Positions 1 to 5,084 of a DNA stretch of 64,000 bases are shown in pieces. Position 1 is the stretch's first letter. The number at the start of each line of letters is the position of its first letter. The stretch comes from Escherichia phage PGN6866: the sequence record MT127620, one strand, 5' to 3'. The notes under the pieces were generated by a model. It did not search any database. It worked only from the letters and a program-made list of their open reading frames with translations, and had not been told where the DNA came from. The translations under genes and the position numbers were made by a program.

Positions 1-1026
1 CAGAATGGTAAAAAACTTTCTTTTGCTAACTGGATTTCTGTTCTGTCCCCTCAGGATACCCCGTTCGTATCTATGACCGGTAAAGAGTCTATCAACCAGA
101 CTATCTTTAGCTGGCAGACCGATGCACTGGCAAGCGTTGACGGTAATAACGCACACGTCGAAGGCTCTCGTGCTGAAGACGGCGAAATGAAACCGACTGT
201 TATCAAATCTAACGTTACTCAGATTCTGCGTAAGGTTGTTCGTGTTTCTGATACTGCTAACACCACCGCTAACTACGGTCGTGGTCGTGAACTGATGTAT
301 CAGCTGGAGAAGAAAGGTAAAGAGATCAAGCGTGACCTCGAGAAAATCCTTCTGTCCGGTCAGGCTCGTACCGACGTTCTGGCTGACCAGTACCTGACTA
401 ACTCTGCAACTGATCCTGCAACTGTTGGTCTGAACGACACTCATGCAGCTCGTAAGACTGGTGCATTCCAGTTCCTGTGTGCTCACGGTGGTCTGGCTGG
501 TGGTGTTGTTGACAAGACCAAGAATGGTCCTGCTGACCCGGATACTGGTGCAGTAACTGTTAAAGTTGCACAGAATGCTTCTAACCCGACCACTAACATT
601 GGTTTCGACGAAGCTGATATCTTTGATATGACTCTGCAACTGTATACCGCTGGTTCTGAAGCAGATATCATCATGATTAACCCGGCTCATGCTAAGATCT
701 TTGCTGGTCTGCAAGAAAATACTCAGGGTTCACGTAAGCGTATCTTTGAGAACACCAAGCAGTTCATCTACGAAGTTAACAGCATCACTGACCCGCTGGG
801 CCAGAGCTACAAAATCATCGTTAACCGTTGGATGCCTACCGATGCAGTTTACTTCTTCCGTAGCGCTGACTGGACCCAGATGGTTCTGCGTGCTCCGAAA
901 CGTACTGAACTGGCGAAAGATGGTTCTTACGAGAAGTGGATGATTGAAATGGAAGTTGGTCTGCGTCACCGCAACCCGTATGCTTCCGGCGTTCTGTTCA
1001 CTGCTGCGGGAAAGGTGGCGGCGTAA
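1..1026 (+). CDS. Probable major capsid protein, 5'-truncated (frame open to window start; track ORF begins at 73)
   Basis: Frame 1 has no stop from nt 1; strongly biased high-expression codon usage (ctg/cgt/ggt/gct/aac); first gene of structural module; followed by -1 frame Ig-like ORF. Confidence 0.6.
   Translation, partial: QNGKKLSFANWISVLSPQDTPFVSMTGKESINQTIFSWQTDALASVDGNNAHVEGSRAEDGEMKPTVIKSNVTQILRKVVRVSDTANTTANYGRGRELMYQLEKKGKEIKRDLEKILLSGQARTDVLADQYLTNSATDPATVGLNDTHAARKTGAFQFLCAHGGLAGGVVDKTKNGPADPDTGAVTVKVAQNASNPTTNIGFDEADIFDMTLQLYTAGSEADIIMINPAHAKIFAGLQENTQGSRKRIFENTKQFIYEVNSITDPLGQSYKIIVNRWMPTDAVYFFRSADWTQMVLRAPKRTELAKDGSYEKWMIEMEVGLRHRNPYASGVLFTAAGKVAA
1008..1014 (+). other. Candidate programmed -1 ribosomal frameshift site, slippery heptamer G_GGA_AAG
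   Basis: X_XXY_YYZ heptamer 4 codons before capsid stop; -1 frame is open from 909 through the Big_2 ORF to 1550. Confidence 0.45.
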
Positions 1027-1037
1027 CAGTAGACAGT

Positions 1038-1550
1038 GTGACTGTTAGCCCTGCGTCTTTAGCTAGTCTAGAGACAGGGGCTACTCGGCAGTTCACTGCA
1101 AGCGCGGAGAAAAGTGATGGTTCTACCGAAACAACTGGCTTTACTTGGTCAGTGACAGGAGGTGGTTCTATCACTCAGTCGGGTTTGTATACTGCTCCGA
1201 GTGCGTCTCAATCCACTGATGTATCCATTACTGCAACTTTAGAAGGTGTTTCTGGAACAGCAACCATTTCTGAAATTGTTGCTCCTACTCCTACTATTGT
1301 AGCTAAGGGTCCAATTACGGGTAAAACTGGTGGTTCCTCCACTAATTTCACTACCATGTTTACTGTAACTAATTCTGCTGCTGCGGATTACACGTTTGTT
1401 GTAACTCCTACAGAAGCTGGTACAGTAAGCGCAGCTGGTGCGTTAACCTTAGATTCTGCTGCAAGTGGCGAAGTTACTGTTCAAGCAAGTTTGACAGCTG
1501 ATCCGTCCATCAATGCAACATGCACTTTTACTGGTGTAACACCTGCTTAA
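1038..1550 (+). CDS. Ig-like (Big_2) domain ORF, probably expressed as C-terminal frameshift extension of the capsid protein
   Basis: Translation has Big_2-like pattern (TxxFTASxxxxDGS...WSVTGG...SGLYTA); in -1 frame of capsid gene; GTG is the only start. Confidence 0.55.
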   Translation: MTVSPASLASLETGATRQFTASAEKSDGSTETTGFTWSVTGGGSITQSGLYTAPSASQSTDVSITATLEGVSGTATISEIVAPTPTIVAKGPITGKTGGSSTNFTTMFTVTNSAAADYTFVVTPTEAGTVSAAGALTLDSAASGEVTVQASLTADPSINATCTFTGVTPA

Positions 1551-1557
1551 AACTAGA

Positions 1558-1587
1558 CCCTGCCTTCGGGCGGGGTTTTTTCGTTTT
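1558..1587 (+). terminator. Rho-independent terminator (ccctgcc-ttcg-ggcgggg + T-run)
   Basis: 7-bp GC stem with UUCG tetraloop followed by tttttt. Confidence 0.6.
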
Positions 1588-1609
1588 AAGACCTATACAA
1601 GCAAGTGTG

Positions 1610-1619
1610 TAATGTATAT
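1610..1619 (+). promoter_or_regulatory. TAATGTATAT motif, candidate phage promoter element
   Basis: Same 9-10 nt motif recurs at 18537 and in the 28.4 kb intergenic region; lies between terminator and RBS of next gene. Confidence 0.35.
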
Positions 1620-1651
1620 TCTTTGTCTACATATAACAAGGAGGACAACCT

Positions 1652-2404
1652 ATGGCAATGCCAGATGTTCAATACCCCATCAATACCTATGGGTGGCTAA
1701 AGAAGGCCGTGGCCCTCTGGGCAGATAGGGACGACGATGAATTTGTTAATCAAATTCCAAACTTTATTAACTTTGCAGAGAAAGAGATTTATCGTAACTT
1801 ACGTATTCCTCCTCTGGAAAAAGAAGTATATTTAGATATTAAAGATGGAGTAGCTTACATTCCTCCTGATTACTTAGAAGCTCAATGGATGATGAGAGCC
1901 AAAGATGGCACAATCTTCCAAGTAACCTCTCCTGAAGAGATTAGCTATCGTAGACAGCATGGAACAATTAACCCATCTCACTGGAATAACCAACCTGTCA
2001 ACTTTGCTCGTTTCGGTAGTCGTTTCATTTTCTACCCTAGCATCGAAGCAGATACTCCGTACTACCCTGATGATGGAAGCCCTTTGATTCCAGCAGAAAA
2101 CTCAGTGATTCTTAGCTATTATGCAGACCCACCGGAATTCCATGAAGATACAGATACTAGTACTATTCTTACTATAGCACCAGAACTTCTTCTGTACTTC
2201 ACCCTACGTCATGCTTGTCTCTTTGTTCAAGATGATAATGGTGTTCAGAAATGGTCAGCATTAGGAAAAGCTATCCTTGATGAAATGGTAGAACAGAATA
2301 AGAAACAAGAGTACTCAGGTTCACCTATCGCAATTCCGAATAACATGACTCGACTTCAGAGCAGCCTGCCTGATATTTATGGTATTCGTACTTCTCGTGT
2401 ATAA
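1652..2404 (+). CDS. Hypothetical virion protein (250 aa)
   Basis: ORF with strong RBS aaggagg; position in structural module. Confidence 0.7.
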   Translation: MAMPDVQYPINTYGWLKKAVALWADRDDDEFVNQIPNFINFAEKEIYRNLRIPPLEKEVYLDIKDGVAYIPPDYLEAQWMMRAKDGTIFQVTSPEEISYRRQHGTINPSHWNNQPVNFARFGSRFIFYPSIEADTPYYPDDGSPLIPAENSVILSYYADPPEFHEDTDTSTILTIAPELLLYFTLRHACLFVQDDNGVQKWSALGKAILDEMVEQNKKQEYSGSPIAIPNNMTRLQSSLPDIYGIRTSRV

Positions 2405-2413
2405 GGAGACAAT

Positions 2414-5056
2414 ATGATCGTTTATAATAACCAAGCACCTGATGCAGTGAATAACGTTGGGCAGTTTGGTGCTACTGAAGGCTCTATCGGAGCTTACAAG
2501 CAAGCAGCAGAGTATGCAGCTGACTCCAAATATTGGGCACTGCTAGCGGAGTCTAAGTTTGGTACAATCGATGACTTGATCGCTGAAGTGGAACGTCTGT
2601 ATCAACAAGGTGTTCTGATGAAGCAAGATATCGAGGATCTTAAGCAGGATTTTAAAGATCAAGATGCTCGTCTAATGACGTTAATTGCTCAAACTAACGC
2701 AGCAGTCTCTGATGCAAATAACGCAGTCGCCCTGATTAACCAGAAACTCATTGAAGTCCAGAATCAGCTTGATGTTCTGTTAGGAATGTCTGTTGATGTA
2801 ACAACCCTCCCTCCGGGAACTCCGGCTACTGGTTCTTTTAATCCTAACACTGGTGTAATTTCTTTAGGTATCCCAGAAGGTGAACCCGGAAAAGATGGTT
2901 CTGTTAAAGACTTGGATACAGCACCTACAGGTGTTCCAGAGCTAGGTGACTTGGGTTTCTATGTTGACAAAGATGACAATACCGTCCATAAAACTACTCT
3001 AGAGAATATTGCTAACTTAATCCCATCTGTTCGTTCTGTTTCTGTTAATGGGGGACCAGCTCTTGATGGAGAGGTTGCTCTAACAATCAACAAAGAGACA
3101 GTAGGTTTAGGAAATGTTCTGAACGTTGCTCAATACAGTCGTCAAGAGATTAATGACAAATTTGACAAGACTACCAAGACATACCAATCAAAAGCAGAAG
3201 CTGATGCTGATGCTCAGTATCGTCAAGTAGGTGAGAAAGTTTTAGTTTGGGAAGCTACTAAGTATGAATTCTATACTGTTGCTGCTAACAAAACACTAAC
3301 TCCTGTTAAAACTGAAGGTAGGATCCTTACTGTTAACTCCCGTTCTCCAGATTCCAGTGGTAACATTGACATTACTATTCCAACAGGAAACCCTTCTCTG
3401 TATCTTGGTGAGATGGTGATGTTCCCTTATGACCCAACGAAGAATATCTCCTATCCGGGTGTTCTTCCAGCTGACGGTCGTCTAGTATCTAAAGAATCTG
3501 CTTCAGACTTAGGTCCATCTCTTGTCAGTGGACAACTTCCTGTTGTTTCTGAAACTGAATGGCAAGCAGGGGCTAAACAATATTTCTCATGGGGTAAGCT
3601 AGCAGATGGGATTACTGATGCGGATTCTACTAATTTCATCAATATTCGACTTCCTGATTGGACTGGAGGGGAGGCAATAAGAGCACCAGATTCTGATAAA
3701 GATTCTCAGTATAATGGGTCTGTACAGGCTCAGAAACCTTATGTTGTCACTGTAAATAACCAAGCTCCTGATGAGATTACTGGTAATGTGAACATCTCCA
3801 GATCTATCTTGGGAGCAGCTTCTTCTGGTGCAAACTCTGATATAACATCCCTGACAGGACTCACTACAGCTCTCTCTATCGCTCAAGGCGGTACAGGAGG
3901 GAAAACTCCATCTGAAGCTAGGGCAAACCTGAATCTTGAAAGATTTCAACAAGACAATTCGCAGACTTTGATATATTCTCCTGATTATGCCCGTCGTGTT
4001 TATGTTGACAACACTGGTGGTTCTTGGGGGTGCCAGAACGTAACAGATGGCGGTTTTATTGCTCTTGGTATTCCTCAAGGGGGTACGGGAGCTAAGGATG
4101 CTGCTGGTGCACGAAGCAATCTCGGTTTGGGTTCAGTGTCCACGCTAAACAATATACCCGTAGCTAATGGAGGTACTGGAGCAACTACTGCTGCTGGTGC
4201 TCGTTCCAACTTAGGTCTCGGGAGTGTTTCTACTCTAGATAACGTCCCTATCGCTAGCGGTGGGACAGGTGCTGGGGATGCTGCTGGTGCAAGGTTTAAC
4301 CTAGGGTTGGGGAGTTCAGCTACTCTAAACACTGGAACTACCAGCGGTAATGTTCTTAAGGTTGGTGATTTTGGAATTGGAAGACCTGACGGTGCTCTTG
4401 TTTTTGATACTACTTCACAAGACCAACTTCTTGCTGGACTTGACACTTATGGGCTGTGTGTGTTTAGGAATAACCAACAAATAGCAGCACCTTGGGATAT
4501 ATGGAATTACTCCTCAAACCTCTTCTTTAGGGCAGGAGACACATACAGTATGATAAGTATTCCGTTTGAGTCTGCCGGTAAGATAAAAGTTTTTGGTGGT
4601 GCAGCAGGCAGTGGGTGGAAAACCTCAAGGACGGTATATGATACTGTAAATACAACTGTTGACGTCAATGGCTTTATCAAAGCAGCGTCACCAATAGTTA
4701 AGGTATTCCATGACGGAAGTTTTGAAACAAATGAACAATCTGATGGAGTTAGTGTTAAGAAAATCTCCACTGGGGTTTATTTAATTTCAGGGTGTCTTGG
4801 TCTTAATTCTGATGCAGGATGGGGTGGGGTAGATGGAGGCTTTGAAATCCCAATAGACCGAAACAAACAACCTAGAGTTTGGCTTGACTATGAGGTTAAA
4901 GAGGATGGTTCTCTTTTAATTAAAACTTATCATAGAACCCATTCAACATCCCCAGCTTTTGCTAGAAACGAGTTGGAAGGTTTTTCTGACGGAGACCCTG
5001 TTGACATTCCTAAGGATGCGTTCATTTCGGTTCGTGTTGAAATGCCTTCTAAGTAA
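2414..5056 (+). CDS. Tail fibre protein with repeated GGTG-x(6-8)-AR-x-NLGLG motifs
   Basis: Four tandem copies of a GGTGA..AGAR.NLGLGS repeat typical of phage tail fibres; RBS taaggag. Confidence 0.8.
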   Translation: MIVYNNQAPDAVNNVGQFGATEGSIGAYKQAAEYAADSKYWALLAESKFGTIDDLIAEVERLYQQGVLMKQDIEDLKQDFKDQDARLMTLIAQTNAAVSDANNAVALINQKLIEVQNQLDVLLGMSVDVTTLPPGTPATGSFNPNTGVISLGIPEGEPGKDGSVKDLDTAPTGVPELGDLGFYVDKDDNTVHKTTLENIANLIPSVRSVSVNGGPALDGEVALTINKETVGLGNVLNVAQYSRQEINDKFDKTTKTYQSKAEADADAQYRQVGEKVLVWEATKYEFYTVAANKTLTPVKTEGRILTVNSRSPDSSGNIDITIPTGNPSLYLGEMVMFPYDPTKNISYPGVLPADGRLVSKESASDLGPSLVSGQLPVVSETEWQAGAKQYFSWGKLADGITDADSTNFINIRLPDWTGGEAIRAPDSDKDSQYNGSVQAQKPYVVTVNNQAPDEITGNVNISRSILGAASSGANSDITSLTGLTTALSIAQGGTGGKTPSEARANLNLERFQQDNSQTLIYSPDYARRVYVDNTGGSWGCQNVTDGGFIALGIPQGGTGAKDAAGARSNLGLGSVSTLNNIPVANGGTGATTAAGARSNLGLGSVSTLDNVPIASGGTGAGDAAGARFNLGLGSSATLNTGTTSGNVLKVGDFGIGRPDGALVFDTTSQDQLLAGLDTYGLCVFRNNQQIAAPWDIWNYSSNLFFRAGDTYSMISIPFESAGKIKVFGGAAGSGWKTSRTVYDTVNTTVDVNGFIKAASPIVKVFHDGSFETNEQSDGVSVKKISTGVYLISGCLGLNSDAGWGGVDGGFEIPIDRNKQPRVWLDYEVKEDGSLLIKTYHRTHSTSPAFARNELEGFSDGDPVDIPKDAFISVRVEMPSK

Positions 5057-5065
5057 ATTAACAAT

Positions 5066-5084
5066 GCTCCCTTCGGGGAGCTTT
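5066..5084 (+). terminator. Weak terminator/attenuator hairpin (gctccc-ttcg-gggagc, short T-run)
   Basis: 6-bp stem with UUCG loop and 3 T, immediately followed by RBS of next gene. Confidence 0.4.

Follow-up and report, generated by a model that had tools for sequence, protein, structure and literature searches.

Probable −1 ribosomal frameshifting from the major capsid gene into a tandem Ig-like extension in the Kuravirus-type Escherichia phage PGN6866

The capsid gene and its slippery site

The stretch of DNA analyzed here (the window, 64,000 nt of Escherichia phage PGN6866, record MT127620) is 98–99% identical to the genomes of phages phiEco32 and IMEP8, the value for Kuravirus IMEP8 being 99.2%. 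It opens inside the gene for the major capsid protein (MCP), whose frame can be read from position 1 to the TAA at 1024–1026, the end that had also been assigned to it in a sequence-only reading of this DNA. According to the phiEco32 annotation, 11 codons are cut off by the window start, and the ATG at position 73 given by the ORF listing is internal to the gene. The encoded protein belongs to the Pfam family SU10_MCP (PF17236; 229.5 bits vs. a cut-off of 24.1), and the DNA of the gene is 98–99% identical to the major head protein genes of phiEco32, IMEP8, and SU10. The features of the locus are collected in Table 1.

Table 1. Features at the 3′ end of the capsid gene and in the downstream −1 frame (positions in the window).
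Feature	Position	Strand	Evidence or remarks
Major capsid protein (MCP) gene, 3′ 342 codons including stop	1..1026	+	SU10_MCP family, HK97 fold
Slippery heptamer G_GGA_AAG	1008..1014	+	X_XXY_YYZ register, checked against the MCP frame
−1 frame extension, 178 codons (GGGVTVDSVTVSPASL...TGVTPA) plus TAA 1548–1550	1014..1550	+	
Candidate hairpin S1, UAACAGU (1024–1030)/ACUGUUA (1041–1047), 10-nt loop	1024..1047	+	
Ig-like domain 1 (Big_2 type), extension residues about 5–88	1026..1277	+	Pfam, AlphaFold2, Foldseek
GTG, start codon in most GenBank annotations	1038..1040	+	Anti-SD duplex −1.7 kcal/mol; GTA/ATA in relatives
Candidate conserved hairpin S2, 1048–1052/1077–1081 and 1055–1059/1071–1075	1048..1081	+	
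Ig-like domain 2, extension residues about 90–178	1281..1547	+	AlphaFold2 strands 94–176; LigA match
Intrinsic terminator 3′ of the extension ORF	1555..1588	+	Annotated as terminator in the SU10 record

The final codons of the MCP gene are TTC ACT GCT GCG GGA AAG GTG GCG GCG TAA. Read in this frame, the heptamer near the stop that the sequence-only reading had singled out is indeed in the X_XXY_YYZ register; its AAG is followed by three sense codons before the stop. The bare motif GGGAAAG is not enriched in the window (6 copies vs. 7.7 expected); the significance of the heptamer lies solely in its register and context. In fact, it is the sole heptamer on both strands of the 64 kb that is in register, has A or T as Y, falls within an ORF of 100 codons or more, and is followed by a −1 frame that continues for at least 60 codons beyond the zero-frame stop.

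The −1 frame extension and its putative start codon

The first codon after a slip at this site would be the GGT at 1014, from which the −1 frame is open for 178 codons. Upstream, the frame is limited by a TGA at 945–947 and is thus open from 948 to 1550; the sequence-only reading had it open from 909, which is wrong and leaves the slip site unaffected. The 170-codon ORF with a GTG start that this reading had placed within the frame is present at 1038–1550, and its lack of a ribosome-binding site holds: no anti-SD duplex 5′ of the GTG is stronger than −1.7 kcal/mol, a background level matched by 59% of random positions. By comparison, the median is −8.7 for 15 long ATG-started plus-strand ORFs in the window, and clearly SD-led late genes lie between −7 and −12. 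Other Kuravirus-group phages have GTA or ATA in place of this GTG; their first NTG, within the Ig domain, is codon 15, 33, or 46 of the extension, and gene callers have set the starts of the homologues at three different positions. The GTG is most likely an internal valine codon rather than a start, and the data support that the extension is reached only via frameshift. No promoter-like or terminator-like site was found between the MCP gene and the extension, and both are part of one transcription unit.

The AlphaFold2 model of the extension (pLDDT 96.6) consists of two tandem bacterial Ig-like domains. Its first β-strand comprises residues 6–12 and begins 5′ of the GTG codon (residue 9). The best PDB match of the model in Foldseek is the tandem Big_2 structure of LigA (E 3.6e-11, 24% identity, both domains covered), and further matches include a LigB Ig-like domain, invasin, Big_2–CBM56, the BIG2 domain of phi29 gp8, and the Ig domains of T5 pb6; the predicted fold of the extension thus resembles solved Big_2 domains. 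At the level of sequence profiles, Pfam Big_2 (PF02368) aligns with extension residues 6–83 at 21.0 bits (E 3.2e-4), just under the gathering score of 22.8, whereas some homologues carry a precomputed PF02368 match; Ig-like domain 2 has no Pfam match. The earlier description of the ORF as Big_2-like holds for the fold, which in the model is clearly that of a bacterial Ig tandem, and falls slightly short on the Pfam score.

Conservation of the slip site and the extension

A search for related loci among viral contigs returned 11 loci, and patterns built on conserved MCP C-terminal anchors recovered more; several chance matches of these patterns in unrelated GC-rich contigs were ignored. GGGAAAG is present in register in all 17 Kuravirus-group loci of the first set, and further distinct metagenomic sequences of the Kuravirus type, retrieved with an anchor upstream of the site, contain it as well. 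The spacer between the heptamer and the MCP stop measures 9 or 12 nt, indels within it having lengths divisible by three. Within the extension, conservation at the amino-acid level sets in at the slip site, and from there onward the peptide G(G/S)GVTVD(S/T)(V/I)TVSP is kept despite synonymous changes. The −1 ORF, with a length of 178–540 codons, is open in every relative examined except for the deposited SU10 sequence, in which a 1-nt insertion ends the frame after 11 codons; this could be either a peculiarity of SU10 or an error of sequencing. PGN6866 carries the short version, of 178 codons, and some relatives have longer extensions, of 217–540 codons.

Beyond the group, capsid relatives at 57–66% identity also have Ig-like extensions that are reached in the −1 frame. 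For example, the Privateervirus slip site is GGGAAAG directly 5′ of the UAA, other distant capsid relatives have G_GUA_AAG with a GC-rich hairpin 6 nt downstream, and two loci (L027 and L066) have C_CCU_UUC.

Downstream RNA structure

The search for a downstream stimulatory hairpin, a feature the sequence-only reading had envisaged, provided two candidates (S1 and S2) and no strong structure at the canonical distance of 5–9 nt. The minimum free energy z-scores of the segments 1015–1060, 1015–1085, 1015–1110, and 995–1030 lie between −1.2 and −1.9, none of them convincing for a stimulator, and no SD-like element was recognized by reading the bases upstream of the heptamer (TTCACTGCTGC). S1 begins 9 nt past the heptamer, or 12 nt in the relatives with a 3-nt insertion. 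Its seven pairs are invariant in 17 distinct sequences and its loop varies, no covariation being seen; it competes with a longer hairpin and is possibly a weak stimulator. Synonymous-site conservation around S1, judged by eye in the alignments, was dropped as evidence: the invariance of a GTA nearby is due to the overlapping TAA stop, and the other three invariant third positions are unremarkable, as some 40% of sites of this kind do not vary in the alignment.

S2 has 99.4% of its cells paired across the alignment, with two pairs changed on both sides (UA/GC/AU and GC/UG), and can be extended to a long hairpin at about 1038–1096. RNAalifold gives structure conservation indices (SCI) of 0.78–0.84 for segments spanning 1016–1103 vs. 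0.09–0.54 in the remaining extension, and the single-sequence z-scores of the S2 region are just −1.2 to −1.5. The compensatory changes link a Ser site, at which they are synonymous, with a site in the Ig domain at which they alter the amino acid. The first possible stem lies 9–12 nt past the heptamer, and S2 or the long hairpin starts 24–34 nt past it, distances that are greater than those of classical stimulators. A stimulatory element is not obligatory for frameshifting of this type, and the λ G–T frameshift is not known to need a strong downstream structure. That a conserved RNA structure, either S1 stacked on S2 or the long hairpin, tunes the ratio of capsid protein to fusion is a doubtful proposal. 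The modestly supported candidate structure at about 1024–1096 is the sole unpublished element of the locus; a downstream element of this kind has not been described for Kuravirus, where the sole published proposal is a stem-loop enclosing the heptamer (SU10 paper). This stem, CUGCUGC/GCGGCGG with the heptamer in its loop, forms in silico (−12.1 kcal/mol, z −1.89); its role as a classical stimulator was ruled out because its 5′ arm would be melted by the ribosome standing on the heptamer.

Probable frameshifting and its alternatives

We put the probability at about 90% that the extension is joined to the capsid protein by −1 programmed ribosomal frameshifting at G_GGA_AAG, an event of the type known from Kuravirus (phiEco32/SU10-like phages). 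This proposal of the sequence-only reading gained support from the conserved heptamer and frame, from a GTG that is unconserved and devoid of an SD, and from an Ig domain that starts 5′ of it. Under this model, most ribosomes would read GGA AAG GTG GCG GCG and terminate at the MCP stop, releasing a capsid protein of 352 aa (38.7 kDa; calculated mass 38.66 kDa). In a minority, a backward slip by one base would re-pair the P-site tRNA-Gly, first on GGA, with GGG and the A-site tRNA-Lys, first on AAG, with AAA; these ribosomes would resume at the GGT, translate a Gly-rich linker and the two tandem Ig-like domains (178 aa), and end at 1548–1550 with a minor capsid protein of 349 + 178 = 527 aa (55.7 kDa; calculated mass 55.66 kDa). 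From the identical heptamer of λ G–T, an efficiency of a few percent is to be expected for this presumed slippage, and about 25 of 715 subunits would be extended if incorporation is proportional. The first 349 residues of the long form are those of the capsid protein, and it should therefore be built into the prolate shell together with the short form; its Ig domains would be displayed there on the surface and probably contribute to weak adhesion to carbohydrates or surfaces. By this reasoning, PGN6866 itself would make the fusion and put it into its capsid, and the frameshift predicts a tryptic peptide, GGGVTVDSVTVSPASLASLETGATR, directly after MCP Lys349.

Alternatively, the Ig-like ORF might be a separate gene, translated from the GTG at 1038 by weak independent initiation or by termination–reinitiation to give a free decoration protein of 16.6 kDa. 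The GTG lies only 11 nt past the MCP stop in the window, two CDSs are annotated in the records of phiEco32, IMEP8, and ShigP1, and gp10 was taken as a separate putative minor capsid protein in the SU10 cryo-EM paper. However, such a gene would have to start without an SD, at an anti-SD value that is background, and from a codon that other Kuravirus-group phages have replaced by GTA or ATA, their next NTG being 15–46 codons into the conserved Ig domain. The predicted first β-strand and the Pfam match also begin 5′ of the GTG, amino-acid conservation starts as far upstream as the slip site, and about 60 codons of the Privateervirus −1 ORF precede the annotated start of the "Ig" gene. We consider a separate gene very unlikely; its product, of 16.6 kDa, would be free and start with the peptide fMet-TVSPASLASLETGATR, and independent initiation would give (f)MTVSPASLASLETGATR and no peptide that contains GGGVTVDS.

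A heptamer that is there by coincidence, followed by an unexpressed ORF that is the decaying remnant of an acquired Ig-domain cassette, would fit the background frequency of the bare motif in the window and the deposited SU10 sequence, whose phage has apparently lost the extension and is viable. A decaying remnant is nevertheless difficult to reconcile with an ORF that is open over 178–540 codons in every other relative examined and shows synonymous-type changes and gains of whole domains, with the pLDDT of 96.6 of the extension model, or with the proteomic detection reported in relatives, and it seems more improbable still than a separate gene. Least credible is that the long form stems from a stuttering RNA polymerase (transcriptional slippage) or from heterogeneous DNA at the G3A3 tract, a view to which we give almost no weight. 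The site does contain short homopolymer runs, GGG and AAA, but they are 3 nt long. In bacteria and phages, runs of about 6–9 or more identical bases are required for transcriptional slippage to be productive. Moreover, what is conserved is the exact tandem-slippage heptamer in its exact codon register, a property relevant to ribosomes alone. A separate observation, which counts against the fusion, comes from cryo-EM of SU10, where neither extra capsid density nor a long MCP band was seen; the deposited SU10 sequence, however, carries the truncating 1-nt insertion.

Known systems and implications

The capsid–Ig frameshift of this locus is already published for the phage group, in SU10 (citing phiEco32), Privateer, and YF01. 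The SU10 paper describes slippage at GGGAAAG "as in phiEco32" and head protein forms of 38.5 and 55.4 kDa; mass spectrometry of Privateer virions revealed the minor capsid protein (Privateer paper and record); and the YF01 paper reports the same slip site and cites a rate of about 3.5% for λ G–T. phiEco32 gp11/gp12, SU10 CDS9/CDS10, and YF01 gp8 correspond to the same locus, with the same heptamer, distance to the stop, and Big_2 extension, the YF01 and Paul products being about 890 aa in total vs. 527 aa here. Proteus phage Privateer has a homologous MCP (about 57% identity), the same GGGAAAG at the gene end, and an Ig-like extension in the −1 frame; its heptamer abuts the stop (GGG AAA G, then UAA), whereas here it is placed three codons upstream, and its extension has an I-set-like domain followed by Big_2, unlike the one described here.

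The correct annotation model is a joined CDS, as already used in GenBank for YF01 and Privateer, and the practical value of the present analysis is one of annotation: most GenBank records of the genus, those of the closest relatives included, treat the Ig ORF as a gene of its own, with an arbitrarily chosen start that varies by record. No new principle is involved in the capsid–Ig fusion. It would equip the prolate capsid with a few Ig-like domains, a recurring phage strategy that is thought to aid weak adhesion to carbohydrates or mucus. Since Kuraviruses are under development as therapeutics targeting gut E. coli, it may matter for their behavior in mucus how many Ig domains they carry and of which type.

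Outside the group, the λ G/G–T pair has the identical G_GGA_AAG, an E. coli host, and −1 tandem slippage that occurs at low efficiency shortly before the upstream ORF ends. The proteins, however, are unrelated, those of λ being a tail assembly chaperone absent from the virion, and the product here a capsid subunit with a display domain. T7 10A/10B and T3 gene 10 are closer in outcome, with a −1 shift near the end of a podophage capsid gene that gives a minor, C-terminally extended, co-assembling subunit; the T3 extension is Ig-like, as here, and that of T7 is not, and the MCP family of both phages is not closely related to the present one. The slip sites also differ, that of T7 being G_GUU_UUC. 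Finally, in phi29 gp8 and Salmonella phage 7-11 gp009, capsid proteins of prolate-head podophages, the C-terminal Big_2-type domain is encoded in frame, without recoding. Phage 7-11, whose capsid protein is a relative of the MCP family found here, has two paralogous MCP genes, one for a short form and one for a 585-aa in-frame fusion; in phi29 the domain is present on every subunit, and its gp8 aligns with the extension at 27–28% identity over about 105 columns (Foldseek).

Identity of the locus

The first ORF of the window matches the Pfam family SU10_MCP (229.5 bits) and the gene downstream of the frameshift locus matches SU10_adaptor. Bases 1-1700 share 99.2% identity with Escherichia phage vB_EcoP_IMEP8 and 98.1% with phiEco32; 77 phage records span at least 80% of them in a single match, and the close matches are nearly all E. 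coli podophages of Kuravirus or Gordonclarkvirinae. These matches place the locus at the 3' terminus of the gene for the major capsid protein (MCP) in a prolate podophage of the phiEco32/SU10 type; judging from the annotation of phiEco32, the first 11 codons of this gene precede the window. The frameshift itself is the published Kuravirus capsid frameshift and is already known. The SU10 genome paper describes GGGAAAG slippage joining the major head protein to an Ig-like domain, "as in phage phiEco32", and the YF01 paper covers the heptamer, the isoform extended in the -1 frame and the exceptional case of SU10. Ig-like domains appended by frameshifting to phage structural proteins have also been reviewed as a general phenomenon. 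The CDSs are joined in the YF01 and Privateer GenBank records; two separate genes are annotated in most others, the window's nearest relatives included. The residual interest lies in a candidate downstream RNA structure and in the correction of this annotation.

Coordinates of features in the window and in homologous loci
Feature	Sequence	Position
TGA closing the -1 frame upstream	TGA	945-947
Opening of the -1 frame		948
Slippery heptamer	G_GGA_AAG	1008-1014
First codon after the -1 slip	GGT	1014
MCP stop	TAA	1024-1026
Annotated start of the Ig-like ORF	GTG	1038
Extension stop	TAA	1548-1550
Terminator		1555-1588
Hairpin S1		1024-1030/1041-1047
Hairpin S2		1048-1052/1077-1081 and 1055-1059/1071-1075
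Long form of S2		~1038-1096
Lowest consensus energies		1016-1103
SU10 (L003, KM044272), homologous to window 1008-1048		1508-1549
Uncultivated 82-90 kb phages (L009-L011), slip site and downstream hairpins	G_GUA_AAG	4397-4480
Aeromonas phage LAh_8 (L012), slip site	G_GUA_AAG	4394
Metagenomic contig L027, slip site	C_CCU_UUC	~11068 (- strand)
Metagenomic contig L066, slip site	C_CCU_UUC	~338 (- strand)
Salmonella phage 7-11 (L017), MCP paralogues		1949-4725
Cronobacter phage A24 (L018), MCP paralogues		2974-5078
Bas86 (L021), HNH endonuclease gene		4045-4557
XT18 (L026), HNH endonuclease gene		3209-3721

Slip site and proposed mechanism

The MCP frame closes with ...TTC ACT GCT GCG GGA AAG GTG GCG GCG TAA, so that both the end of the capsid ORF and the slippery heptamer proposed by the sequence-only reading are borne out, the latter sitting in the G_GGA_AAG register of that frame. 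The -1 frame, said there to be open from 909, is wrongly placed, as it is interrupted by a TGA and opens only after it; the slip site is unaffected. After a -1 slip, 178 codons are open until the next stop. As a bare string, GGGAAAG is found in the window without enrichment (6 observed, 7.7 expected), and the MCP copy is the sole in-register X_XXY_YYZ heptamer on both strands of the 64 kb within a long ORF whose -1 frame runs far past the zero-frame stop. No promoter- or terminator-like site was found between the MCP frame and the extension, and a terminator lies 3' of the latter.

A -1 programmed ribosomal frameshift at G_GGA_AAG, fusing the MCP to the Ig-like extension, is very probable (about 0.9). 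The heptamer is that of the lambda G/G-T frameshift; in E. coli, tRNA-Lys readily moves from AAG onto AAA, and the tRNA-Gly reading GGA pairs anew with GGG. By analogy with lambda, tandem -1 slippage would occur at a few percent, the G/G-T frequency being cited as about 3.5% in the YF01 paper. The SU10 capsid holds 715 MCP copies (SU10 cryo-EM study), and a few percent of these, with proportional incorporation, would amount to some 25 long subunits in each head. Codon usage is consistent with heavy translation of the MCP and infrequent translation of the extension: codons preferred in E. coli make up a fraction (Fop) of 0.80 in the MCP (1-1023) versus 0.62 in the extension (1014-1547), and GC3 is 0.45 versus 0.25. 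The change is sharp at the frameshift site, and in these values the extension resembles the adjacent tail genes (Fop 0.48-0.53).

With the phiEco32 N-terminus filling the 11 missing codons, the computed products are an MCP of 352 aa (38.66 kDa) and a fusion of 527 aa (55.66 kDa) with the predicted junction ...VLFTAAGK-GGGVTVDS..., the free Ig ORF product being 16.6 kDa. For SU10, the proteomics paper reports the major head protein at 38.5 and 55.4 kDa.

The extension as a probable part of the capsid gene

The alternative of an independent downstream gene is very unlikely, according to four lines of evidence. The GTG start had been described as lacking a ribosome binding site, and indeed its 17 upstream nt pair with the anti-Shine-Dalgarno at only -1.7 kcal/mol, a value equalled by 59% of random positions; 15 long + strand ORFs with an ATG start have a median of -8.7 kcal/mol, and late genes with a clear Shine-Dalgarno sequence reach -7 to -12. 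The GTG is not kept either, being GTA or ATA in KBNP1711-, NJ01- and Suseptimavirus-type relatives, where the earliest ATG, GTG or TTG in the extension frame comes 15, 33 or 46 codons on, within the Ig domain; in line with this, the database gene calls of homologues begin at three different places. From the slip site on, relatives share the peptide G(G/S)GVTVD(S/T)(V/I)TVSP(A/S)S despite synonymous codon changes, and a spacer of 9 or 12 nt separates the heptamer from the MCP stop, which means that the frame relation survives indels. Finally, the GTG codon is residue 9 of the extension, and both the Pfam Big_2 match (residues 6-83) and the predicted first beta-strand (residues 6-12) start before it.

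The AlphaFold2 model of the extension (22 sequences; mean pLDDT 96.6) comprises two beta-sandwich domains, residues ~5-88 and 90-178. Its best Foldseek match in the PDB is the tandem Big_2 domains of Leptospira LigA (E 3.6e-11), followed by invasin, S-layer and Big_2-CBM56 domains; phage Ig-like matches include the phi29 capsid protein gp8, T5 pb6, RB49 Hoc and the SU10 nozzle. The label Big_2-like is thus correct for the predicted fold, even with a Pfam score of 21.0, slightly below the gathering threshold (22.8).

Conservation and other routes in relatives

GGGAAAG is in register in 17/17 Kuravirus-group loci of the first set, and is also present in every further Kuravirus-type sequence recovered through an anchor which, being upstream of the slip site, does not bias this outcome. 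Extensions of 178, 180, 217, 264, 271, 351, 370, 455, 459 and up to 540 codons occur among relatives. Whole Ig-like modules gained or lost account for this range, with the slip site and the first Big_2 domain constant (loci L019, L021, L024, L025, L044, L045 and L053); the evolution of the capsid display domain is cassette-like. In Bas86 and XT18, an HNH endonuclease gene lies between the extension and the adaptor gene, a place without such a gene in the window (1551-1651).

The deposited SU10 sequence has one additional base (TGTCTACTG versus TGT-GACTG in the window), which closes the -1 frame after 11 codons. This truncation is consistent with the remark of the YF01 authors and with the SU10 cryo-EM study, where no long form of the MCP was seen, and is at odds with the 55.4 kDa form of the proteomics paper; either SU10 has truly lost the frame or the deposited sequence contains an error.

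More distant MCP relatives (57-66% identity) carry Ig-like extensions in the same -1 frame with different sites. For example, GGGAAAG directly adjoins the UAA in Privateervirus, and G_GUA_AAG is found in three uncultivated phages (MCP 64-66% identical) and in Aeromonas phage LAh_8. This heptamer is non-canonical, A_AAG being its only shifty part. A GC-rich tetraloop hairpin lies 6 nt past the site in the three uncultivated phages, and L009, where the folding z-score is -4.8, has a second one of ~12 bp after it; it looks as if a weaker slip site were offset by a strong stimulator. An in-register C_CCU_UUC at the MCP end of two metagenomic contigs, with -1 extensions of 123 (L027) and 114 codons (L066), would be a third slip-site type in the family. 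MCP duplication in Salmonella phage 7-11 and Cronobacter phage A24 is an alternative route to a short-plus-long pair: two adjacent paralogues occur without a frameshift site, those of 7-11 being 312 aa and 585 aa, the second fused in frame to a C-terminal extension. As several genetic routes lead to a short and an extended capsid protein, the arrangement is kept by selection.

Candidate stimulatory RNA

A functional role of RNA structure downstream of the heptamer is unlikely. Single-sequence folding is unremarkable there (z -1.2 to -1.9), and hairpin S1, 9-12 nt past the heptamer, is uninformative because it is invariant. Hairpin S2, whose start is more distant from the slip site than that of classical stimulators and which can be extended to a long hairpin, has 99.4% of cells paired among 17 distinct Kuravirus-group sequences, and two of its pairs are altered on both sides (UA/GC/AU and GC/UG); these sequences represent only about four haplotype groups, and the number of covarying pairs in their alignment does not exceed that in shuffles. 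In a sliding RNAalifold scan (720 nt), the lowest consensus energies fall around S2, with an SCI of 0.78-0.84 at 82-85% identity versus 0.09-0.54 at 66-81% identity in the rest of the extension. In the inner stem of S2, compensatory changes link the silent third base of a Ser codon (TCT, TCG, TCA) to the middle base of a variable codon, which reads GAG, CAG, CCG or CTG (E, Q, P or L). A residue replacement in the Ig domain thus goes together with a silent change 14 nt upstream.
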